From Syntrophorhabdales bacterium (lineage in GTDB: Bacteria; Desulfobacterota; Syntrophorhabdia; Syntrophorhabdales; WCHB1-27), in assembly GCA_035315185.1 (NCBI GenBank), contig DATFYE010000113.1, forward strand, positions 14,202 through 78,201: 64,000 nucleotides of DNA, in the 5' to 3' direction. The translations under genes and the position numbers were made by a program. A model generated the notes under the pieces. The model had not been told where the DNA came from. It saw only the letters and a program-made list of their open reading frames with translations, and ran no database searches. Below, in pieces: positions 2,884 through 19,510 of this stretch (position 1 is its first letter; each line of letters starts with the position of its first letter).

Positions 2884-3102
2884 ATGCTCATTGGAAAACT
2901 CGATGTCAGAACCAGACAAAAGATTCTCGTGACAATTCGGGAGATCAAAAAGATAAAGATGATAGACCTGAGGGTTTATGAGACCAGCGAGGACGGCGAA
3001 ATGGTCGCAACTCCAGCCGGAGTCTCTCTTTCTCCGGATCAGGTGGAGCAGGTGATCGAGTTGCTGAAAGAGGCCAAAAGGAAGGCTACGGAGGAACAAT
3101 AG
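2884..3102 (+). CDS. PC4/YdbC-like single-stranded DNA-binding protein
   Basis: The internal ATG at 2884 is preceded by a perfect AAGGAGGA RBS. IDLRVYETSEDGEMVATPAGVSLSPDQVEQVIELL resembles the PC4 coactivator-like fold. The longer TTG-start ORF from 2767 is less likely. Confidence 0.55.
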   Translation: MLIGKLDVRTRQKILVTIREIKKIKMIDLRVYETSEDGEMVATPAGVSLSPDQVEQVIELLKEAKRKATEEQ

Positions 3103-3260
3103 TATACGCAAGATCGATCCACATGGGGTTGCTTCGAAAGAGATGGGAGAGGCTGTAGCCGGACGACAACCCGTATTGACTTCCGTCTACGTATCATGAG
3201 ATAACGGTTCACCGGAGATTATCGTCGTAGCATTCAATTCTGACAAAGGAGTTTGTACAC

Positions 3261-3464
3261 ATGGCACAAGGAACAGTGAAGTGGTTCAACGATGCTAAGG
3301 GCTTCGGCTTTATTACCCAGGATGGTGGCGGGGACATTTTTGTCCATCACTCCGCCATTCAAGGGGAGGGCTTCAAGTCTTTGTCGGAAGGCCAGAGGGT
3401 TGAATTTGACGTCGTGCAGGGACAGAAAGGACCAGCCGCAGCAAATGTTCAGAAGATAAAATAG
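3261..3464 (+). CDS. cspA: Cold-shock protein (CspA family)
   Basis: [18 protein letters not shown]...DIFVHHSAI contains the RNP1 and RNP2 motifs. Confidence 0.95.
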
Positions 3465-3729
3465 GCAATCGAGGATACGTGGCAGCCAGTGGACCCTTCA
3501 GGAACCGGGGATATGGCTGAGGAGACTGCGCGATCGCAGGTAAGATCGGGAGCGGCAGGAGACAGCCTTGAAACTGATGCTCATTACGACTTGCAGTGTT
3601 TGCTAATCCACTAAGGCTTCAACGCCTTTCCACGACATAACAGGCGACTTCTTAATATGATTGATAGATTGAGCAATAGCAGTGGCGATAAAGCCGGTCG
3701 ATTCACTGAGTGGGATACCTAAAATCAAT

Positions 3730-4257
3730 TCAGCTATTCTTTCCAATCTGCGTGTACTTTTTTTCAAATTCCAGAGGCTTGAATCCTATCCTTATCTGCT
3801 TACCAGATTTTGCTTGTATTATATGGCTGCATATAACATCTTTGATGACCCATTCGGAAATGTTCGCGTTATCAATACATGCACCGCTTAGGTTTGCCTT
3901 TGTTAAATCTGTCTTTATGAGAATAGAGGCAGTTAAGGTAGCGTCAGTGAGATCGGCTCCGCTGAGATCGGCATCGCTGAGATCGGCTCCAATGAGATCG
4001 GCTGCAAAGAGATCGACTATAGTGAGCTTGGCTGCAATGAGGTTGGCTCCAATGAGGTTGGCTCCGCTGAGATCGGCATCGCTGAGGTCGGCATCGCTGA
4101 GGTCAGCATCGCTGAGGTCAGCTGCAATGAGGTTGGCTCCAATGAGGTTGGCTCCCCCGAGCTTGGCTCCGCTGAGGTTCCATCCTTTTTTTGGCATTTC
4201 CCCTGCAACGACGGCCAAATGAACAAGCCTCGCCCAAGTTTGCTCTCTTGTCATCAT
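3730..4257 (-). CDS. Pentapeptide-repeat protein
   Basis: Long A(D/N)LxG/ADLSD runs (ANLIGANLIAADLSDADLSDADLSDADLSGANL). The DNA shows a 15-bp periodicity at about 3940-4150. Confidence 0.9.
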   Translation of the reverse strand: MMTREQTWARLVHLAVVAGEMPKKGWNLSGAKLGGANLIGANLIAADLSDADLSDADLSDADLSGANLIGANLIAAKLTIVDLFAADLIGADLSDADLSGADLTDATLTASILIKTDLTKANLSGACIDNANISEWVIKDVICSHIIQAKSGKQIRIGFKPLEFEKKYTQIGKNS

Positions 4258-4306
4258 CTCTTATTATATCATCGGCTGTGCGTTCATAGTTGATAACCCT
4301 CTGCTC

Positions 4307-4362
4307 CAAGCCCACCCTACCATGCTGTCTATTGTACTGCGTGTGAGCTACACGGGTTCAGG
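4307..4362. repeat. Dispersed short repeat, copy A
   Basis: CAAGCCCACCCTACCATGCTGTCTA (25 nt identical to 11137-11161) followed by TTGTACTGCGTG...CACGGGTTCAGG. Confidence 0.75.
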
Positions 4363-4472
4363 CATCTTAGCAGCCACGGAATACCCACATAGATAGTAAG
4401 ACACAGGTATTGCTCGCTGCGAATGCGACGTCAATGTGACACCCTACGTGAATTGAACTCACTACAGACCGG

Positions 4473-5000
4473 GTGTATGCTATGAGTCAAAATCCAGCAG
4501 AAGGGGCAATCATGGGCAACAAAGAAGATATTAAGGCAAATACCTTTGAGAAGATTCTTATGGCAAAGAAGGCATCGGCGAGAAACATGACCGGCACCGA
4601 AGACCTGCTGAGCGCCATGAGTGCCACAAGCAACCAAGATACAGAGGCAGAGACCGAGAAACCACGTAAAGCACATAAGACACGTTGGTTACAGATCCTT
4701 GTGGCATGCTGTTGCATTCTCATCATAGCCGCCGCAGGAATAGACTTTCTCTACGTCAACTCTGAAATTAGTGCAGTCCAATCCGCCGTCGGATCAGCCG
4801 TCAAAGATCTCGATACGCTCAAGGCACAACTGGCTGTGACCGACGTAAGAAAACAGCTTACCGCTGTCACTGCCGAGGTGGAGGACCTCAAGGCAACCAA
4901 CACACAGCTCCGGGCTGAGGTGAAAGAGATGAGGGATACCCTTGAAGCGCTGAAAGCAAGGAAAAACGGCGTTGTTCCTGCGCCACAAAAACGCAGGTGA
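4473..5000 (+). CDS. Membrane-anchored coiled-coil protein, paralog of 19076..19510
   Basis: MTGTEDLL...one TM (LQILVACCCILIIAAAGI)...AVTAEVEDLKATNTQLRAE...LEALKARKN aligns with the 144-aa ORF at 19076. The true start may be an internal Met at 4482, 4512 or 4560. Confidence 0.6.
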   Translation: MYAMSQNPAEGAIMGNKEDIKANTFEKILMAKKASARNMTGTEDLLSAMSATSNQDTEAETEKPRKAHKTRWLQILVACCCILIIAAAGIDFLYVNSEISAVQSAVGSAVKDLDTLKAQLAVTDVRKQLTAVTAEVEDLKATNTQLRAEVKEMRDTLEALKARKNGVVPAPQKRR

Positions 5001-5069
5001 CAGTCAGGGTCAAGAAGCAACCCATATGAACAGAGATGCTACTTGTCAATGAAGGATTAGAATTACAGC

Positions 5070-5300
5070 ATGGCTAAGGTGAAGATTTACATCGTCGGAA
5101 AAGATAGAAAAGTGGGTGCCATGGTAAAAGCGTTGGCACGTGAGATAGCTGGTTTCCAGCCGGTTAGAGGAGCAACAAAGGAGTTTCTCGCCGCACATGG
5201 ATACTATTTGTTTGATTTCCCTAGTGCTTCCAGAGCAGCGGAGTTCAAGGAAGCCGTCCGGAAGTATCTGCCCGTTTCGTTGGCCACAATCCAGGAATGA
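5070..5300 (+). CDS. Hypothetical 76-aa protein
   Basis: ORF only, with a weak RBS. Confidence 0.35.
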   Translation: MAKVKIYIVGKDRKVGAMVKALAREIAGFQPVRGATKEFLAAHGYYLFDFPSASRAAEFKEAVRKYLPVSLATIQE

Positions 5301-5303
5301 ACC

Positions 5304-5336
5304 CAATCCAGTTGAGGATCCTCAAGGGGGAAATGG
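5304..5336. repeat. 33-bp imperfect direct repeat, copy 2
   Basis: CAATCCAGTTGAGGATCCTCAAGGGGGAAATGG. Confidence 0.65.
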
Positions 5337-5414
5337 CACGGGTATAGGCAGGAATGGACAGAAGAGGCAGCGCGGAATGGTAGGGCCTGAAAGAAACCCC
5401 TGCAGGCGGATGGT

Positions 5415-5885
5415 CTAATCTTTCTCTAAAAGCACCTTCTTATAGCTAATCTTGTAAGTCAGCTGAGAAGGATTCTCGACAGGTTCCTGCAAGATTGGCA
5501 AGGCCGAACAGGTCCACGTAGTTTCACCCGGCTTGATGATGGCGGCCCACTGGTAATCGCTGCCTGCGCCCACCTTCGCGATGTTTATCAGGTACCCCGG
5601 TTTGAGTACGGCAATGGACCACTTCACCTCTTTGACTCTTCTGCCACTCTTATTGTCAATTGAGATGCGCAGAGGAAACGCATTAGAACAGGTGGCAGGA
5701 TCGTAGCGCACGGCCATTTCAACCCTGCCTGGCAAATACTGGGTTTCATAGTGCCTGTAGAGCGTAAGAACACTTATCCCGATGCTACAGAGGACGATCA
5801 CAACACGAGCGCGCCCGGGGAGCTTGGACCAAGACGCCAAAATTATGATGAGGGCTATAACCCATATCCATAGCATCTCTACCAA
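5415..5885 (-). CDS. Hypothetical membrane-anchored protein
   Basis: Two N-terminal hydrophobic helices followed by a soluble beta-rich domain. No recognisable family. Confidence 0.45.
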   Translation of the reverse strand: MVEMLWIWVIALIIILASWSKLPGRARVVIVLCSIGISVLTLYRHYETQYLPGRVEMAVRYDPATCSNAFPLRISIDNKSGRRVKEVKWSIAVLKPGYLINIAKVGAGSDYQWAAIIKPGETTWTCSALPILQEPVENPSQLTYKISYKKVLLEKD

Positions 5886-6211
5886 CTATCTATAGCATAA
5901 CGAGGAGTCACTGACCAACTGGATAGGTGGCAAAGCGTTCAGAAGATACTCTTCCCCGTCAAGGAAACTGCAAGATTACCCGGTGCCTTCTGAAATATTT
6001 TGGAAAACAGTTGAGCATGGACGGTATTTCGATCATATGGAACCATGGCGGCTTTCGATTGATTATCAAAGTCCCTTCCTCCCTCAGCAATACTGGCTAA
6101 AAATATGCGTTCTATGAGAGAAAACACTTGTACAGCCAGTAAAGGCGTGGTATTAAAAGATTGTACGCTTGTAGAAGCGCGCCAAATCTAACCGCTTAAG
6201 GAGGAAGATGT

Positions 6212-6484
6212 ATGACAAAAGCAGAGCTAATCGAAAAGATGGCGAAGGATGCAAAAGTCACCAAAGCAGCGGCTGACAAAGCAATTGATTCATTTGTCGA
6301 TAATGTAAAGAAAGCCCTGAAGAAGGGAGAGAAGGTTACTCTTATCGGTTTCGGTACGTTCTCTGTGACGCAGAGAAAAGCAAGAAAAGGGAGAAATCCG
6401 CAGACTGGTAAGGAGATAAAGATTGCTGCGAGGAAGGCTCCGAAATTCAAAGCTGGCAGTGACCTTAAGAAAGCGGTGAAGTAG
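6212..6484 (+). CDS. hup: DNA-binding protein HU
   Basis: MTKAELIEKMAK...FGTFSVTQRKARKGRNPQTGKEIKIAARKAPKFKAG is the canonical HU/IHF signature. GGAGGA RBS. Confidence 0.95.
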   Translation: MTKAELIEKMAKDAKVTKAAADKAIDSFVDNVKKALKKGEKVTLIGFGTFSVTQRKARKGRNPQTGKEIKIAARKAPKFKAGSDLKKAVK

Positions 6485-6792
6485 AAAGCAGTACGTTACT
6501 CGAGACGACGATTTTTCCACCCTGACCAGGAGGACCTAGTTATCGCTCTGGAACGGTGGAGGCGAATTAAGCTCAATACATAATCAGCAGGAACACCGTT
6601 GCGCTGATTCGAGAGCCTCATTTAGTACTTCCTGTAGTGTTGAAAATCCCACTTGCTCACGGAGTTGCGGATTATGTACGGTAATTGTCGGTTCTCTACA
6701 ATTTATCTCATCCAACATGATCCTCTCGCGACGTGTTTGAACAGCAGTATCTATAGGCCATAAAGCTTAATAAAAAAGTATTAATTATTTGC

Positions 6793-6820
6793 TTGACAGA
6801 ACCTATACCGATGCTACAAT
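6793..6820 (+). promoter_or_regulatory. Near-consensus sigma70 promoter with a ~420-nt downstream leader
   Basis: TTGACA-16 nt-TACAAT. The next plus-strand gene starts at 7242. Confidence 0.55.
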
Positions 6821-7241
6821 CACAATAGGGGGACGAAAACTCGCTTCTGAAGGGTCCCTTAGGGATAGAACGCAGCGAGCATTTTAGAGCGAAGATAATC
6901 GAGCTGCCTCCGCAGGATAAATCTTCCGGCAGTTCACTCACATTCTAATTGGAGACCAAGATGGGCTGTTTGACAGAAAGGGGTGATTCCATTGGACAAC
7001 TATCTTTCCGAAGCTTGATCGTCTCGATCGAGTAGAAGATCACTCTTTCCATAAACTCAAAGGGGGAGCGCTGTAAACAACAAACACGCAAGCAAGTTCC
7101 TATCAAATCTAGTGCTCAGGGGGCGTCTGAACCCAGGGGGAAAGGAGGTAACGCTGTAAAATGCCACACTGAAACAAAAATCGACACCGGGCTTAGTTTC
7201 CACTGATCACTTAACAAAATGTATGAAAAGGAGAAAAATTT

Positions 7242-10804: not shown

Positions 10805-11136
10805 GTGCTGCCTCCCTTCTCAGTATTTGCCAGTATTATGTTATCGGAACTTTGATAGGATTCCTGAGGGTCTGAAAGATCACTAAAGACTTTACTCGTA
10901 ACTGGCAACCAAACTACTTGGAATACTTCCCGCGAGAACCTAATCCCAAAATACTCCCGCCTATTGGACTCCAGCCACATTTGCCGGTACAATTTAACCG
11001 GTGAGCGCTTATTCTGCTGAAGGTTTTCCTAGAGTAGTGATCTGCCCGAACTGTGGCCAAAAGATCCTGGCAACTCGTCCCCATATGCCCCCACCTTCAT
11101 TTTACCCCCTGGAAAGAATACACTACGTCTTCACTT

Positions 11137-11185
11137 CAAGCCCACCCTACCATGCTGTCTACTGCACTGCGTGCCCCACGGGTCA
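11137..11185. repeat. Dispersed short repeat, copy B
   Basis: CAAGCCCACCCTACCATGCTGTCTACTGCACTGCGTGCCCCACGGGTCA. Confidence 0.75.
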
Positions 11186-11290
11186 TCAACAATCCGTTTT
11201 GCAGGGAGGGGGGCGGTGTCCTTCCTCCTGCTTTTTTTGGCACACTCAAATTTGTAAAACCATAAGTTTTCTGTTTAGCCTTTGCTCCCG

Positions 11291-13069
11291 CTATTCCGAA
11301 CGCTGTTTCAACTGGGCCAGTAGCCAATTATATTGGGAACGTGCATGGGAAATAAGCTCAAGGAAAGTCATCAGTTTTACGTCGTCCTCTGTGTAGTTCG
11401 TTCTTACTCCCTTATCGCGCTTCCCGCCAATCACGATGACCTCCATTTCTCTCAAGTTGGCCAAAAGATCGTGACGGTATGCGATGGCCTGCAGATAATC
11501 AGCATGGGTAAGGGTATGATTAGGCCTTTTGAACTCGATCAGGGAGTGCCTTCCCAATAAGTCATTGGCAAGAAGAAGGTCCGGGCGTTTGGAAGCCCTA
11601 ATTCCGGAGAATTTGGTCGATAGATATTCCTCCGCAATTCTTTTGAGTGCAATGTTTGAAGATTTTAAAGAATACTCCGGACCGAAGATCCACAGACGAT
11701 TCTCAAGCGCTTGGTGTGCATGCTTCTCTAGGGTAGCGGGATTTACCACAATTTCTTCAAACTCATCTATCAGGCGAAGGCGATATGTCAGCTGATGCTG
11801 CATCATTGACAACTCCACGAAGCTTGATTCTTCCAATGCTCGGGCAAAAGATTCAATATCGCTTCTTTTCGCTTTGTCGATCTTGTCAATTATGAAATAG
11901 TACTCATCTCTTTCTATTGCCTCCAGAACCACGTTTACCAAGGGCTCAAGCTTTTCGTCAGGCTCGTCATAATACTTTTGCAGTAGTCGCTGGAGAGCTC
12001 TTTGGGCGAAAACTTTCTTGAATTCTGGTAGCTGCTCAAGCCTTCGGTTTATTTTTTGTTGCAGGCGGGCTTGGGCCAAATGAATTTGTTGTCCATATAC
12101 TTTTTTGGCCGCCTCTCTAATTTCGCCTGCCACCCAAGTCCGCAACGCATCATAGCCTTTGCTATTCTCAATAACCGTTCCCCAATCTGCAGTCACATCT
12201 GACAGGAGGCCATCGGCCTCTACTTCGCCGTATATTTTGCCAAGGACGGATTTGGGAAAATCTTCACTGTCTTCGAGGCCAAAAAAATGTGGTTTTCCTA
12301 TAACCTTACCCTCCACACGAATAGCGATTCCTGCATTCCTAAAACGCCGCCTTGCTTCTGCGACGGTGAAAGCCAGAGCCGCTCGGCCCACACCATCAAT
12401 GTTTGCCTCTGCGGTATGCGTTTCTCCTTGAATGTGTTCATAGGTGACTTTTTCATCATCAACGTGAAGTGTGAAATCCTCTTCCCGCCCATAATCCCGA
12501 ATCAGCAGCTCTCGAAGCTTTTCTGGCAGAGGGAATCTCAAGTTCTGGTTTAATCCGCTTAGCGTGACCTTTGTTCCGTGCTTATCAGCCGCTACTTCTT
12601 CAATGGTGGGAATTAGATCCAATTCCTCCAGGTCACGGGATGCTTCTACAAGCCTTCCTTTCTCCAAGATTATTGAAGTGTAGACGCCTCTGGCCCATGT
12701 CTCCAATTGCATAGAGGACGCAGTGACGAGACCGGCAAATTTCCCGATGCCTTTTCTTCCTTTTACCTTTCTTTTCTTTCCGATGGTGAGTTGGCCCTTT
12801 GAACTAATCCGATCCTTTGCCACTACGAGATATTCGCTCTGAAGCTCTTGCGGCGTCATGCCCGTTCCATCATCTTCGATAACAAGGAAATCGGCTGTAT
12901 CGGGCTTGGGAAGCCGAATCCAGACATTGTCGGCATCAGCATCCCAGCAGTTGTCCACAAGCTCTTTGATAGCTGCTTCTGATGAGCGGTAATTCTCGCT
13001 CAGAAGAATCACTAACCTGGAATCAACTCGAAATTGCGGCTGTGCCATATTGCCTCTCTTTCTCGTCAA
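11291..13069 (-). CDS. GHKL (MORC/Hsp90-like, HATPase_c_3) ATPase fused to a C-terminal PD-(D/E)xK, Shedu/DUF4263-like nuclease domain
   Basis: N-terminus: IKELVDNCWDADADNVWI...LVIEDDGTGMT...GRKGIGKFAG (N, G1 and G2 boxes). C-terminus: WIFGPEYSL...RPDLLLAN...HSLIEFKRP (D...E-x-K). An alternative start is M8 at 13048. Confidence 0.75.
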   Translation of the reverse strand: MTRKRGNMAQPQFRVDSRLVILLSENYRSSEAAIKELVDNCWDADADNVWIRLPKPDTADFLVIEDDGTGMTPQELQSEYLVVAKDRISSKGQLTIGKKRKVKGRKGIGKFAGLVTASSMQLETWARGVYTSIILEKGRLVEASRDLEELDLIPTIEEVAADKHGTKVTLSGLNQNLRFPLPEKLRELLIRDYGREEDFTLHVDDEKVTYEHIQGETHTAEANIDGVGRAALAFTVAEARRRFRNAGIAIRVEGKVIGKPHFFGLEDSEDFPKSVLGKIYGEVEADGLLSDVTADWGTVIENSKGYDALRTWVAGEIREAAKKVYGQQIHLAQARLQQKINRRLEQLPEFKKVFAQRALQRLLQKYYDEPDEKLEPLVNVVLEAIERDEYYFIIDKIDKAKRSDIESFARALEESSFVELSMMQHQLTYRLRLIDEFEEIVVNPATLEKHAHQALENRLWIFGPEYSLKSSNIALKRIAEEYLSTKFSGIRASKRPDLLLANDLLGRHSLIEFKRPNHTLTHADYLQAIAYRHDLLANLREMEVIVIGGKRDKGVRTNYTEDDVKLMTFLELISHARSQYNWLLAQLKQRSE

Positions 13070-13117
13070 GACTGTTATATTTGAGCAGCAACGTGAGTCT
13101 AGAGTTAGGATAGTATG

Positions 13118-13540
13118 CTACAGATACTGTCTCACATAATCCTCCGGAAGATCGCAGTCTCTTGCCCCTGTGCGTATGATCTTTCGGTACGGATGTGATG
13201 GGTCACCACGCTTCTGGGCCGGTCTGAGATAAATCCATGCTTGGTGGCTGGCGCCCGAGTCGTCTTTCACCGGCAGCTTTTGTCGCCCATAGACATGCGG
13301 ATATCCCTCAAGTCGATCCAAACTTTCGAGGTCCTTTTCCGATATTTCGAATATACCTCCCCAAACCACACTATTTTTGCTCGGAGCTACATTGCCCACC
13401 GCTCCACCACGTCTCTCAGAATAACCATCATACATAAAGCTATACTCCGGGAGTAAGGCCCTGCCCACAAATCTGCTGTCAGGGCATCTTTCCTTCATCT
13501 GCTCATGACTCATGTTTGACCCATATGCAAAGTAGAACAT
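13118..13540 (-). CDS. Gamma-glutamylcyclotransferase (AIG2/GGACT-like) family protein
   Basis: MFYFAYGSNMSHEQM...VWGGIFEIS..DLESLDRLEGYP. 48 bp upstream of, and co-oriented with, the GHKL-nuclease gene. Confidence 0.8.
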   Translation of the reverse strand: MFYFAYGSNMSHEQMKERCPDSRFVGRALLPEYSFMYDGYSERRGGAVGNVAPSKNSVVWGGIFEISEKDLESLDRLEGYPHVYGRQKLPVKDDSGASHQAWIYLRPAQKRGDPSHPYRKIIRTGARDCDLPEDYVRQYL

Positions 13541-13995
13541 TCTATGCCCCTCGGCAAAATTTAGCGTATCTCATTAACCCTTTCATGTCCGCATATAACA
13601 AATAATATCCGAATCTTGTCTTCTCCGAAATAATATGCTCTGCCTCCTGAAAAGGCAACTACGAAATGTAATGCGAAGAAAGATGGCCAGGGAGCAGATA
13701 CGCAAGGGTCTGTTCATGAGTCACTTCTATTCATGAGGTGAGGATAGCCTAGATTGTGCTGTCGGGTGAAGGCAAGACTCATGTGAGGCTGGGACATGGA
13801 CTCAGATGATGAAGAGATGGCGGAGATGAAGTAATTCCTGAAAGGGTAAATCTGTACTATAATTAAAGCAGTGATTGTTACATTTAGTAAATTGTGATCC
13901 GGCCGAATCAGTGGAGATTTTGTTTCGGTTTGTAGTTGATGGCAATATTTTTGAACAATAAACCAGTGCCTTTGTAACGGAATAGGGGAGCACAA

Positions 13996-14856
13996 ATGGA
14001 AGAGTTGGCTGTCAAGAATCTATTGGGACAGTATCTTAATGAACATGGTTACAGTTTCCAATATGCCGTGCTGAAAGCTATAAATGACCTATACGATGAA
14101 GGTAAGTCTCCGTGGCTTTTTGAGGTGGCAGAGTTTCCCGTGGAAGTCAATGGAACTCCGACACATATAGACTTTATCCTCAGACACAAGGAAGCTCCTT
14201 TTTATCTAGTAGCTGAATGTAAGCGTGCTAATCCCGCTATCTCAAACTGGTGCTTTGTAAAAGCTCCATATGTCAGCAGAGATATACGTGACGGAAACGA
14301 AAGAATTGTCCGTGAGGTGGTGAACGCCAACGGTGGGACCTCGTTGCAGTGGCTAAAGAGGACTCAGGATATTTATCGATTAGCATTTGAGGTTAAGAGC
14401 ACTGCAAAGGGGGAAGGGAGTTCCGGGAGAGGACAAGTTAACGATGCACTAACTCAAGTATTAAGGGGCGTGAATGGATTGATTAAATTTGCTGTAGACG
14501 GGTTGTGTAAAGGAAAAACAGCTCTCCTTAAAGGGCAATCTTACGCTGCATTCATGCCCGTTATTTTTACAACAGCAAATCTTTGGGTAACTGATGCTGT
14601 GTTAAGCAAAGCTGATTTATTGAAGGGGACAGGTGACATTTCAAAATTCAATCTGACTGCAAGAGATCAAATTCTTTTCCATTATGCACAATCACCGACG
14701 CTCAAGCACAGTTCTTATAATTACAGTGATGACCCTGGATTGTCGGATGTGCTTTACTTGGAGTACACAAGGTCAATACCGATCGTGAGCGCATCAGCCA
14801 TAGCGGGGTTTCTTCCATACATTAATTGGAGTGACCTGGATGACTGGAATAAGTAA
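13996..14856 (+). CDS. Stand-alone PD-(D/E)xK nuclease-fold protein (uncharacterised)
   Basis: PTHIDFILRH...FYLVAECKRA fits a D...E-x-K core. There is no other recognisable domain. Confidence 0.5.
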   Translation: MEELAVKNLLGQYLNEHGYSFQYAVLKAINDLYDEGKSPWLFEVAEFPVEVNGTPTHIDFILRHKEAPFYLVAECKRANPAISNWCFVKAPYVSRDIRDGNERIVREVVNANGGTSLQWLKRTQDIYRLAFEVKSTAKGEGSSGRGQVNDALTQVLRGVNGLIKFAVDGLCKGKTALLKGQSYAAFMPVIFTTANLWVTDAVLSKADLLKGTGDISKFNLTARDQILFHYAQSPTLKHSSYNYSDDPGLSDVLYLEYTRSIPIVSASAIAGFLPYINWSDLDDWNK

Positions 14857-15036: not shown

Positions 15037-15696
15037 ATGGAAACAGGACAAGGGGGAGTGGAAACCGAAAGAGAGTATCATGCAGCTGTGGTGGATGCAC
15101 TTGAGCGAGAAGCTAAGGCTTTCAAGTGCATAGAGGGATGGTTTGTCTGGGTAGGGATTGTTTGGAGTATCGCTCTGCTTGTTTTCGGCCTGGTCTATCT
15201 GTTAGAGACACTTGACGGGGGGTTTTCGTTTGCAGCTCTCGGCCCACTCGTCAAACTACTCATTGTGTTAGTTTTTGCGTTTCTTACCTGGGTGATGCGG
15301 GATAAAATCATGCATGCTTTGGATACGTGGGAACAGCCGCTCCTGAAAAGAGAGCATGATGAGAAGGATGATGAGAAGGCAAGGGAAGCTTTCCGGCGTG
15401 GTGCGAGGATATTCAAATACGGCGTAGAATGCGAGGTTTGGAATGATCAGTTTGTCCCAAAACCAGGCGGCGAGATATTAAATTATGACATCCCATCCGA
15501 TGTTTGGAATGCTTACGATGCTTACTACGATCAGGTACAGAAAGAGCTTGCAGCACAGGACCGCGAAATGTGGCAAAAGCTGCACGAATCCCTCAATAAT
15601 TTAAAGTCTGTCAAAAAACCAGGAAGATGGACAAGATGGAAAGAGAGGCGTTTGAGCACAAGGAAAAGCAATGGTAGCGCAACTACACCTGAGTAA
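15037..15696 (+). CDS. Hypothetical two-TM membrane protein with a charged C-terminal domain
   Basis: TM helices WFVWVGIVWSIALLVFGLVYLL and LVKLLIVLVFAFLTWV. No family recognised. Confidence 0.5.
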   Translation: METGQGGVETEREYHAAVVDALEREAKAFKCIEGWFVWVGIVWSIALLVFGLVYLLETLDGGFSFAALGPLVKLLIVLVFAFLTWVMRDKIMHALDTWEQPLLKREHDEKDDEKAREAFRRGARIFKYGVECEVWNDQFVPKPGGEILNYDIPSDVWNAYDAYYDQVQKELAAQDREMWQKLHESLNNLKSVKKPGRWTRWKERRLSTRKSNGSATTPE

Positions 15697-15918
15697 AGTT
15701 GAAGATGTAACCAGGGAATAATCCGACGGGCCGAAAAGCGCTTTCTCGGGCGCCTTCCCTGGTTCAAATACATGTATAGGAGAGATTTCCTCTATGCTTA
15801 TTCTGATTACCGATTTTCTTTTCGTTGTGCGCGCAACTTGGTACAATTCATTCGAAACAGAAATCAATCAAAAGGGGGCAACACGAGAAAAATAGTCCTG
15901 AGAAGGTCATAACACAAG

Positions 15919-16389
15919 ATGAAAAAATGTCCGTATTGTGCTGAAGACATCCAAGAGGAAGCAAAAAAATGCAAGCACTGCGGGGAATGGCTAAGCGAGA
16001 TCAATCAAGAGCAAACAAAAGAGGTAACTTCTGAGCCGGCGAAGATTCATGCTCCTGAAGCTGAATCTGGTACCGAGACGCTGGAAGTGGTGGAAGGGAA
16101 GGTTTCTAAATCAAGATGGGCTTCAGGATATGGATGGGGCTGGATAGTCTTACTTTGCTTCTATTCTTTGGCGTCAGTATACGGATTTCAAAGTCATCCG
16201 CACGGGTCGGCCGGTTATTACGCGGAAACCATTGGCATTTTTGTAATGCTTGGTTTGTACTATTTTTTGAGGGCAAAAATTGCAAGTCGATGGAAGTTCT
16301 TTGTGGAAAACAGAGGGTTATGTTCATTCGTGGCAGGTATTATAGCCCTCTTTATTGTCGTCTGGACGGTAGGTCTCTTTTTTTATTGA
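15919..16389 (+). CDS. Zinc-ribbon membrane protein
   Basis: N-terminal CPYC...CKHC zinc ribbon (MKKCPYCAEDIQEEAKKCKHCGEWL) followed by 3-4 TM helices. Confidence 0.6.
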   Translation: MKKCPYCAEDIQEEAKKCKHCGEWLSEINQEQTKEVTSEPAKIHAPEAESGTETLEVVEGKVSKSRWASGYGWGWIVLLCFYSLASVYGFQSHPHGSAGYYAETIGIFVMLGLYYFLRAKIASRWKFFVENRGLCSFVAGIIALFIVVWTVGLFFY

Positions 16390-16410
16390 GGGGCGGAGGA
16401 GAAGATCATA

Positions 16411-16734
16411 ATGTCAAAATCCTTCGTGAAAGAATGGACCAAACTGATACGGCCATTGTTTCCTGAGAGTGCAGAAATAATTGAAAAAGTTGCTGGAGAT
16501 GATGTTGTTTTGCTGATTGATTGGAAATTGGGACCGAAAAAAAGATCGCGCTTGATACGAGTGATTGTTTCTAAAGAAGCTATTACAGACTGCCGTGATT
16601 TCAAAGTAGCAGGATCACAATTCGAGAAGATCATCCGGGATAAATTGTCCGTTTTCAACCCAGACCATGATACCCCTGAATATGGCAGCCGTCCGACAGA
16701 GGAATGGGTGGTTAAGACCTCAGATGTAAACTGA
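16411..16734 (+). CDS. Hypothetical 107-aa protein
   Basis: ORF tightly spaced after the zinc-ribbon gene, with a GGAGGAG RBS region upstream. Confidence 0.45.
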   Translation: MSKSFVKEWTKLIRPLFPESAEIIEKVAGDDVVLLIDWKLGPKKRSRLIRVIVSKEAITDCRDFKVAGSQFEKIIRDKLSVFNPDHDTPEYGSRPTEEWVVKTSDVN

Positions 16735-16771
16735 ACCGAAGTGCGAGTAATGATGTAATAGGAGCACGCCC

Positions 16772-17266
16772 ATGCAAATCGCGGTAGTAATTCTCCTAAT
16801 AGTGATTGCAGCACTAATAGCGAAAAGAGAATTCGGATTAAGGGTTTTAGCAGCCAACCCTGATGAGTGGTTGGTCCTCGAGTGGTCCAAGCTCAGTGAT
16901 GCCAGCGAGACCGAATCTCGTTCGCGGGGAAACCAAACATCGTTGCATATAAGATTCATTCCTATTATCGGCTGGACGTACAAATATGGAAAGATAGACG
17001 TTATTATACCACCTGCGTATCGTCAGATCTATCTTCCACTTAAGGCAGAGAATTATAAAGCAGTTAGCTATTGGATCCGGGATGACGCAGTATTTGATAT
17101 TTCTGATTATTCGAGTCATGCTGGGGATTTGTGGGAGAACCTCTCAAATCAGGCGCTTATGGGAACTAAGATACAAATAGATGGTGGCGTGCCAAGATCG
17201 TTTCGTAAAAGGCTCTCGGAAATCCTTGCTATTGGGGATGAACGACAAGATAAGGAGCGAATCTAA
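16772..17266 (+). CDS. Hypothetical N-terminally anchored protein
   Basis: MQIAVVILLIVIAALIAK signal-anchor. No family recognised. Confidence 0.45.
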   Translation: MQIAVVILLIVIAALIAKREFGLRVLAANPDEWLVLEWSKLSDASETESRSRGNQTSLHIRFIPIIGWTYKYGKIDVIIPPAYRQIYLPLKAENYKAVSYWIRDDAVFDISDYSSHAGDLWENLSNQALMGTKIQIDGGVPRSFRKRLSEILAIGDERQDKERI

Positions 17267-17379: not shown

Positions 17380-17925
17380 TCAATACGTTATTCTGGCCAC
17401 TGCAACCCTCTCGGTTTCCTGTAAACCAAACCCTCGTGTCAGTCGCCTCTTCTTCAGGAGGGTGAGTACCTTCTCCAGCACCTCTCTTCTTTCCACCGGC
17501 ACAGACAGGTAGGGAATGATGTGACACCCCTTCAGACATTCCCTGTTTCCCATGGTCCCATCCTTCACCCTCTTTCGAAGGTACTGCCGTGCCTCCTTAT
17601 AGTAGCTGAAGAGCTGGCTGGATATGGCAAATGCATAGAGCCTGACCAGCCCCGGGTAGTGATAATAGATCCTCGATCCTCTCAACAAGTCCAGAACCTC
17701 TCTTCTGCTCTTTTTCTTGACATTGTGTTTCGTCTCCCACTCCACTCCGGCATATTTCTCGGCAGGGCTCTTCACTTCGATAATGGCAATCTCTTTTCTC
17801 TCCACGTGCCAGGCGAGTATATCGGCAAAACTTCCCGAGAGGATCTCTGTCTCGTAACCCTGAGCAGCAAAGTGCTCTGCCGTGTAGAAATCATACACCT
17901 CCTTCTGATAACTGTAATGACCCAT
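17380..17925 (-). CDS. PD-(D/E)xK nuclease-fold protein (YraN/resolvase-like core)
   Basis: The ATG at 17925 follows a GAGG RBS. GSFADILAWHVERKEIAIIEVKSP fits D...E-V-K. Confidence 0.5.
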   Translation of the reverse strand: MGHYSYQKEVYDFYTAEHFAAQGYETEILSGSFADILAWHVERKEIAIIEVKSPAEKYAGVEWETKHNVKKKSRREVLDLLRGSRIYYHYPGLVRLYAFAISSQLFSYYKEARQYLRKRVKDGTMGNRECLKGCHIIPYLSVPVERREVLEKVLTLLKKRRLTRGFGLQETERVAVARITY

Positions 17926-18074
17926 AGTCGACCTCAACTACAGCCATGGAATTCTGAGCAGGAAGATGATGAGACGCTTGATTACAGGATTCTGTCCAGC
18001 CTTGACTATTCTCAAAAAAGTACTTATTTTCGTTGCTAGATGGTTTTAATCTCGGGAACACAGGGAGGTGTGGT

Positions 18075-19075: not shown

Positions 19076-19510
19076 ATGGAGAGGAACTCATCGGCAAGAC
19101 GTATGACCGGTACTGAAGAGTTATTGAGGGTTATGAGCAACGTGGAAAACGACACGGAGACCGTGAAATCGCACAAAGCACCGCGCAAAGTACATTGGCA
19201 ACAAGTCCTTATGGCGTGCTTTTGTATTCTTACCATCTCTGCCGCAGCCAAAGGTTTTATCTACTTCGACACTGAAATCAGTACAGTACGATCCGCCGTC
19301 GAGTCAACCGTCAAAGATATCAATACTGTTAAGGCGCAGGTGAGTGCAAGCGACGCAAGAGAGCAACTTGCTGCGGTTACTGCCGAGGTAGAGGATCTCA
19401 AGATAACCAATGCTCAGCTTAGGGCGGAAATGCGCCAGATCAAGGAAGCGCTTGAAACGCTCAAGGCAAGAAAGAATACTGTTGTTTCCGCGCAACGTAA
19501 ACGCAGGTGA
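19076..19510 (+). CDS. Membrane-anchored coiled-coil protein, paralog of 4473..5000
   Basis: MTGTEELL..., TM VLMACFCILTISAAA, AVTAEVEDLKITNAQLRAE...LETLKARKN. Confidence 0.6.
   Translation: MERNSSARRMTGTEELLRVMSNVENDTETVKSHKAPRKVHWQQVLMACFCILTISAAAKGFIYFDTEISTVRSAVESTVKDINTVKAQVSASDAREQLAAVTAEVEDLKITNAQLRAEMRQIKEALETLKARKNTVVSAQRKRR

Follow-up and report, generated by a model that had tools for sequence, protein, structure and literature searches.

The DNA analysed here, which we call the window and always take at its full length of 64,000 nucleotides, is part of contig DATFYE010000113.1 (positions 14,202 to 78,201, forward strand) in the Syntrophorhabdales assembly GCA_035315185.1. We are interested in two adjacent genes on its minus strand. 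The larger encodes a protein in which a GHKL ATPase is fused to a nuclease domain resembling that of the Shedu defence protein SduA; the smaller, which lies upstream, encodes a gamma-glutamylcyclotransferase (GGCT) of the AIG2-like kind. A preliminary description of this DNA, made from the letters alone, had proposed that the two genes together form a defence module.

When open reading frames (ORFs) are called mechanically, the two genes occupy 11291..13069, with 592 residues read from a TTG codon, and 13118..13540, with 140 residues. Both are on the minus strand and they are separated by 48 bp, just as the preliminary description had reported. Homologs of the larger protein in the databases, including a 100%-identical entry of 585 residues from a Syntrophorhabdales metagenome-assembled genome (MAG), start at M8, and a Shine-Dalgarno-like AAGAGAGG is found 6 nt upstream of an ATG at 13048. 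Thus, as judged from the sequence, the product of the nuclease gene most likely has 585 residues, and the gene itself most likely spans 11291..13048 on the minus strand, which would widen the gap to the GGCT gene to 69 bp. Residue numbers throughout refer to the 592-residue mechanical ORF. The 69-bp spacer (13049..13117, minus strand) contains the putative ribosome-binding site of the GHKL gene, and no terminator or promoter match was found inside it, which is consistent with co-transcription of the GGCT and nuclease genes.

The ATPase and nuclease domains

The N-terminal part of the larger protein is a GHKL (Bergerat-fold) ATPase domain, covering residues 29-166 (12572..12985, minus strand). 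A Pfam scan of the window protein matches PF13589 (HATPase_c_3) with E=4.6e-25 and 88.7 bits, compared with a cut-off of 25. Conservation in this protein was judged from an alignment of 23 family sequences, with identities down to 46%, and every statement below about its invariant residues refers to that alignment. Motif I (E36 and N40), motif II (D66-x-G68-x-G70) and motif III (G104-x-K106-G107-x-G109-K110-F111) are all invariant; in motif IV, G165 is invariant and T166 nearly so. Compared with PDB sequences, the full-length profile gives GHKL matches to HtpG, TRAP1, MutL and MORC.

The ATPase is followed by a beta-rich middle domain of the S5 or transducer-like type (residues ~180-300; 12170..12532, minus strand), which is recognised from the secondary structure of the AF2 model and from Foldseek. 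In the Foldseek comparison, 366-423 columns are aligned with the ATPase modules of MORC4, MORC3 and MORC2 and with the N-terminal plus middle domains of TRAP1 and Hsp90. The middle domain also contains an invariant lysine, K255, which is a candidate for the residue that senses the gamma-phosphate of ATP. A long helical linker (residues ~304-445; 11735..12160, minus strand) then leads to the C-terminal domain. The full-length AF2 model (pLDDT 76) has a GHKL fold, a beta-rich middle (residues ~200-300), long helices over residues 304-445 and a compact alpha/beta domain at the C-terminus. The helices of the linker are placed, with lower pLDDT, at residues 304-345, 349-365, 371-386, 390-399, 405-413 and 415-442.

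Both the full-length profile search against the PDB and the full-length Foldseek search are dominated by GHKL matches, and we therefore analysed the C-terminal domain alone. This domain (residues 446-592; 11294..11734, minus strand) carries the invariant residues E448, H452, W460, R495-P496-D497, E512-x-K514-x-P516 and Q527. A profile of the C-terminal ~200 residues has the SduA protein of B. cereus (8ti8) as its top PDB match, with E=0.004, and in the profile alignment the D and E-x-K-x-P motifs (D497, E512, K514) are in register with the D and the E-I-K-T-P-S of 8ti8. An AF2 model of the C-terminal domain alone (pLDDT 88) has the same structure as its top Foldseek match (prob 0.97, TMq 0.47, E=0.015), followed by the PD-(D/E)xK nucleases EndoMS, Cap4 and Kpn2I. 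In the family at large, PF14082 (SduA_C, also DUF4263) is matched by all 23 aligned members at E<=0.01, the best of them at E=1.2e-7, and many database homologs carry a precomputed match to it. Each of these scores is modest when taken separately. Since the family matches PF14082, however, and since 8ti8 comes first both by profile and by fold, the C-terminal domain appears, from sequence and model together, to be rightly read as a Shedu-like PD-(D/E)xK nuclease.

Two other defence proteins were considered and rejected as assignments: Tiamat, whose PADLOC model TmtA gives no match, and MzaB, for which the score is only 14 bits.

The domain reading given in the preliminary description, that is, a GHKL ATPase joined through a helical linker to a Shedu-like PD-(D/E)xK nuclease, is right in the light of the PF13589 match, the AF2 models and the matches to 8ti8. 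All six of the motifs that it quoted are found, at residues 39, 66, 104, 460, 495 and 510, and the C-terminal similarity to a nuclease fold, on which it had made its proposal depend, is present. Of the two Pfam families that it had singled out, PF13589 is matched clearly; PF14082 stays below threshold for the window protein itself, yet is matched by all 23 of the aligned family members.

The GGCT gene and its cassette

The 140-residue protein (13118..13540, minus strand) is, by its sequence, a bona fide GGCT/AIG2-like enzyme. It matches the Pfam families AIG2_2 and GGACT at about 1e-16, and its scores for the GGCT/AIG2-like models PF06094 and PF13772, 61.5 and 60.2 bits, exceed the respective cut-offs (27 and 22.8). 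In 31 sequences, the catalytic E78 and the residues Y6, S8 and N9 of the YGSN motif are invariant, and G7 is nearly invariant. The protein also matches phrog_2520 (E=8e-28), a common family of phage 'morons'; 439 viral contigs carry relatives. PADLOC gives no match for it, and a search of the literature for a link between GGCT or AIG2 proteins and phage defence or restriction-modification (R-M) found nothing relevant.

The two genes lie together in a cassette of ~2.4 kb (11176..13571 in the window), which is ~97% identical in three differing flanking contexts: the window itself, the locus L001 (154-2452) and the locus L086 (86-2486), the last of these being represented by contigs L086-L089. 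The block common to the window and L001 covers window positions 11278-13721, again at ~97% identity. The cassette ends ~30 bp upstream of the GGCT start on one side and 13-115 bp past the nuclease stop on the other, and the DNA adjoining it is only ~87% identical or unrelated. Thus, within one lineage (at least 97% identity), the GGCT and nuclease genes travel together as one cassette. Inside the cassette, just beyond the stop codon of the GHKL gene, there is a GC-rich hairpin and then a T-run, resembling a terminator (11204..11229, plus strand).

At the locus L086 a direct repeat of 11 nt, CGTTTACTATA, flanks the cassette at 77-87 and 2498-2508; the downstream copy is present in L087-89 as well, and these contigs start inside the cassette. 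No recombinase was found near the cassette. We considered an integron cassette and rejected it, since the junction repeat of L086 departs from the GTTRRRY core site and the surroundings lack a recombinase. In the window, a 40-nt repeat without an Rfam match lies directly outside the cassette edge (11134-11173), and its other copy is at 4304-4343, with 93% identity. The preliminary description had spoken of a dispersed repeat following the pair; the repeat is real, but it is only 40 nt long and has one other copy in the window.

Beyond this lineage the two genes are not found together. GGCT is present at one of 80 nuclease-family loci, and that locus belongs to a 98%-identical relative; the pair is kept only in relatives at 97% identity or more. 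Upstream of the nuclease gene in relatives at 83% and 81% identity there is DUF3892 and no GGCT. A relative at 65% identity has a ParA-like gene two genes upstream, again with no GGCT, and in a relative at 69% identity, whose contig starts ~50 bp before the gene, GGCT is absent among the downstream genes. Conversely, the nuclease is absent from all 164 of the loci that carry GGCT relatives. The pair is therefore not co-conserved in either direction, which is the very outcome that the preliminary description had named as telling against its two-gene module of GGCT and GHKL-nuclease, and the module as a general proposition is not supported. We conclude that GGCT is not a conserved component of the nuclease family; it is a co-transferred neighbour in one Syntrophorhabdales-related lineage.

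The gene on the other side of the nuclease is variable too. In the nearest nuclease relatives (65-97% identity), the same-strand downstream neighbour (L081-L083 2789-3292; L085 2864-3778; L084 4795-5064; L086 2483-2983) may be a DUF6933 gene (13-bp gap), a gene for a 304-aa TIR protein (37-bp gap), a small TIR fragment or a gene for a PLD-like protein. Together with the upstream DUF3892 in the relatives at 81-83% identity, this variation suggests a hotspot of variable partners.

The contexts in which GGCT homologs occur without the nuclease are also informative. The closest homologs outside the lineage (57% and 54% identity to the window GGCT) lie between the Mod and Res genes of type III-like operons. 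The two Mod-GGCT-Res operons are homologous yet diverged, with 46% identity to each other in Mod, 63% in GGCT and 57% in Res. Another homolog starts 2 bp after an Eco57I/TaqI-type IIG enzyme, and a further one stands beside GmrSD-Schlafen and PDDEXK_3 genes. The restriction loci in question, whose GGCT homologs are 46-57% identical to the window protein, are L091 911-7526, L255 1-5923, L095 213-5426 and L097 1243-5633; no literature on GGCT homologs inside restriction loci was found. The remaining homologs belong to a conjugative element or have housekeeping-like surroundings. Counted over non-redundant contexts, restriction enzymes adjoin GGCT in about 5 of 13, a small number that is confounded by the clustering of mobile genes in islands.

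It is important, in view of these contexts, to weigh the possibility that, in this lineage at least, GGCT serves the GHKL-nuclease as an accessory enzyme, so that the pair is a true two-gene system. GGCT might, for example, cleave a gamma-glutamyl-type group off a phage DNA modification, a protein or a metabolite, thereby exposing, or signalling, the target to the nuclease. Such a system would accord with the arrangement of the genes (both on one strand, 69 bp apart and without an intervening terminator), with the tight boundaries of the ~2.4 kb block that is ~97% identical in three flanking contexts, with the conserved catalytic residues of GGCT, and with the placement of its homologs, the closest in Mod-GGCT-Res operons and others by a type IIG enzyme and near GmrSD and PDDEXK_3. 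It is at odds, however, with the absence of GGCT from 79 of the 80 nuclease-family loci, with the different neighbours seen in relatives at 83%, 81%, 69% and 65% identity, and with the count of zero nucleases at 164 GGCT-relative loci. Moreover, GGCT belongs to a phage 'moron' family (phrog_2520, 439 viral contigs) and is found in housekeeping-like contexts, and it lacks both a PADLOC match and a link to defence in the literature searched. On balance, we consider a two-gene system unlikely.

A related but separate idea is that the phrog_2520-like GGCT clade as a whole might be an accessory component of DNA-restriction systems that has so far gone unrecognised. In its support, GGCT is kept between Mod and Res across ~50% divergence, is appended to a type IIG enzyme, and shares a mobile cassette with a GHKL-Shedu nuclease. 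If the idea were true, the gamma-glutamyl-cleaving chemistry of GGCT might strip phage DNA or protein of a protective group; alternatively, a metabolite might be its substrate during infection. We rate this as rather unlikely; even so, the repeated placement of the clade in restriction operons provides a cheap and testable lead.

Family distribution and probable role

A protein search returned 1820 matches at E<=1e-5. Full-length relatives of the nuclease protein, ~585 residues long, occur in at least 518 GTDB species, and the family is spread patchily over a large number of phyla, with identities of ~45-50%. The commonest neighbour family is present at only 10 of the 77 genome loci that could be analysed. 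That is, the family is a stand-alone gene without a conserved partner, as a single-gene system should be. The neighbours that do recur are type III Mod and Res genes with AIPR, type I HsdM/S/R genes, MmeI-type enzymes, Schlafen/AlbA proteins and TraG, and in at least 28 of the 77 loci a gene of the type I, type III, MmeI, AIPR or Schlafen kind is no more than four genes away. Six copies of the family are on large plasmids, four of them labelled 'ATP-binding protein' and two without annotation in PLSDB; one copy, on a conjugative plasmid of Sinorhizobium, is flanked by IS91 and IS21 transposases. This distribution is as expected for a stand-alone mobile defence gene, and a role in defence, read from the genomic context, is plausible.

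The architecture itself is already known. In 2008, Iyer, Abhiman and Aravind defined paraMORC3 as a GHKL domain and an S5 domain with a C-terminal restriction-endonuclease-fold domain bearing E-D-ExK, found stand-alone or in R-M neighbourhoods (PMC2292703). Shedu type I-D, as set out by Gu et al. (10.1101/2023.08.10.552793; Mol Cell 2025), includes homologs with an HATPase_c_3 head and a GHKL-type middle domain. As Adams et al. showed in 2025 (PMC12137116), both E. coli and V. cholerae are protected by VcSduA, a GHKL-DUF4263 fusion from the WASA lineage of Vibrio cholerae, and defence is abolished by either the ATPase mutation E27A or the nuclease mutation K557A. The GHKL-Shedu architecture has thus been catalogued as paraMORC3 (2008) and as Shedu type I-D (2023), and has a validated example in VcSduA (2025).

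Taking these lines of evidence together, we conclude that the window protein is probably a single-gene defence nuclease of the GHKL-Shedu kind (paraMORC3, Shedu type I-D), and that GGCT is an incidental, lineage-specific neighbour. The observed basis for a mechanism consists of intact ATP-binding and catalytic residues, a GHKL-transducer module joined to a nuclease by a linker, the absence of an obligatory partner, and defence-related or mobile contexts. If the protein works like GHKL clamps and like VcSduA, its GHKL and middle domains would dimerise on ATP binding. The resulting movement of the clamp would be passed along the helical linker to the C-terminal domain, and the PD-(D/E)xK nuclease might thereby be licensed to cut invading phage or plasmid DNA.

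Several observations weigh against this conclusion. The SduA_C score of the window protein itself (21.2 bits, E=3.4e-4) is below the Pfam gathering cut-off of 27, the PADLOC SduA model gives it only 17 bits, and the matches to 8ti8 are weak by profile (E=0.004) and by fold (E=0.015, TM 0.47). Similarity to VcSduA is not detected over the first 399 of its 673 residues (BLASTP E~1; hhalign prob 0.6%), a region in which no Pfam HATPase model is matched either, and the signature motifs of the window family occur in none of the 543 published VcSduA homologs, as far as that set is accessible. Searchable literature yielded no experiments on the window's own sequence family. Finally, the two genes are bounded as one cassette in three contexts, so that a functional link between them within the lineage is possible.

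A different explanation of the gene is that it encodes a housekeeping or DNA-repair factor, namely a MutL-like ATPase with its own nuclease and no role in defence. For paraMORC3 genes that stand alone, such a role was considered possible by Iyer et al. (PMC2292703), and the GHKL head of the window protein does have weak similarity to MutL. Yet a patchy occurrence in many phyla (~45-50% identity), AT-rich or island contexts, copies on conjugative plasmids beside transposases, and frequent adjacency to R-M genes are all contrary to such a role, and we regard it as very improbable.

If the protein is instead a GHKL-Shedu defence nuclease, as we think probable, then the locus adds a member rather than a concept: the architecture is catalogued and one example has been validated. 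The family is large (at least 518 species) and is annotated only as 'ATP-binding protein'. Given the sub-threshold Pfam score and the weak PADLOC Shedu score, defence annotation may miss it.

The surroundings of the pair in the window may be described briefly. The AT-richer region mentioned in the preliminary description is borne out, with a GC content of 0.47 for 9-20 kb versus 0.57 for 21-33 kb. Beside the pair, this AT-rich stretch has a run of ORFs without a family match, at 13996-14856 and 15037-17266 on the plus strand and at 17380-17937 on the minus strand. Neighbouring ORFs of 286 and 185 residues, which contain D...E-x-K-like strings, have no significant match in Pfam, PADLOC, NCBIfam, PHROGs or PDB sequences, so that the other nuclease-fold genes of the preliminary description find no support in these libraries; an ORF of 156 residues in the same stretch has an N-terminal zinc ribbon. 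A 300-nt direct repeat with 72% identity (4682-4981 and 19192-19491) lies inside paralogous small ORFs at 4473-5000 and 19076-19510. These ORFs have weak Pfam matches of the coiled-coil type and roughly bracket the AT-rich 5-19 kb, and a third relative is found in L001 at 6401-6924. There are also two tandem repeats, at 44857-45798 and 3902-4186, with periods of ~129 nt (6 copies) and 15 nt (11 copies); the one with the 15-nt period is inside the gene of a pentapeptide-repeat protein (3730-4257, minus strand). The sole RNA gene found by Rfam in 1-22 kb is a tRNA-Lys (CTT) at 771-845. No integrase was found among the window ORFs that were scanned.

Comparison with known systems

The best NCBIfam match of the window protein, and the best match to any named sequence family, is NF050001, for the restriction enzymes BbrUII/HgiDII, with 157.4 bits compared with a cut-off of 550, and its best-scoring stretch covers only residues 27-212. 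A distant relative is encoded by the Yersinia phage P37 (L260, MT239398.1), a temperate, P2-like Peduovirus. At 2905-5950 this phage has a C5-methyltransferase gene and, 5 bp later, a gene for a GHKL-nuclease of 670 residues, which matches the BbrUII/HgiDII model end to end (329 bits). Compared with the profile of the window family, the P37 protein aligns over 563 columns that include the nuclease (hhalign prob 99.9%, E=9e-34); in this alignment its nuclease motif is EFM where the window family reads EFK. From the end-to-end match of P37 and its full-length alignment with the window family, it follows that the window family is homologous over its full length to a genuine family of R-M endonucleases, though it comes without a methyltransferase. 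This homology ties the type I-D class of Shedu to real R-M enzymes.

Does the window gene then encode a classical type II restriction endonuclease of the BbrUII/HgiDII kind, sequence-specific and methylation-sensitive, whose cognate methyltransferase is elsewhere or has been lost? The first place of NF050001 (157 bits), a PADLOC REase_II match at 1e-17 and the full-length profile homology to a protein paired with a C5-methyltransferase would all be expected in that case. The NF050001 score, however, is far under its cut-off, and the best-scoring stretch is limited to residues 27-212. Among the ORFs flanking the gene that were scanned (about 1.2 to 23 kb of the window), none yielded a methyltransferase domain, and the analysis gave no indication of a cognate methylase for the window nuclease. 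In the 77 loci, moreover, a methyltransferase is no constant neighbour, and those that are present belong to type I or type III systems with nuclease subunits of their own. We therefore assign a low probability to a type II enzyme. As compared with BbrUII/HgiDII, the window protein is homologous over the GHKL, middle, helical and nuclease regions; it differs in its score (157 versus 550 bits), in having no cognate methyltransferase, in being ~85 residues shorter, and in reading EFK where P37 has EFM.

For a single-gene GHKL-Shedu defence nuclease, the appropriate comparisons are with the Shedu proteins and paraMORC3. Canonical SduA, as in B. cereus (8ti8) and E. coli, provides the best structural and profile match to the nuclease domain of the window protein; unlike the window protein, it has another N-terminal sensor domain and no ATPase, and it forms tetramers. 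VcSduA is a single gene with the same architecture and presumably the same logic; its defence needs both the GHKL ATPase and the DUF4263 nuclease, and it is modelled as a dimer. It has 673 residues, the window protein 585. With paraMORC3, as described, the window protein shares intact GHKL motifs, an S5-like middle, a nuclease with E448-D497-E512-x-K514, a setting that is stand-alone or among R-M genes, and a patchy distribution; the difference is in the host, which here is a Syntrophorhabdales MAG and not a proteobacterium or a member of the Bacteroidetes. A difference from Shedu type I-D is the window protein's own SduA_C score, which lies below the Pfam threshold. In its described architecture, type I-D corresponds to the window protein in several respects: a PF13589 head, an Hsp90/MORC-like GHKL middle domain (called 'N24' in type I-D), and a DUF4263/SduA_C nuclease with D...ExK, all encoded by a single gene.

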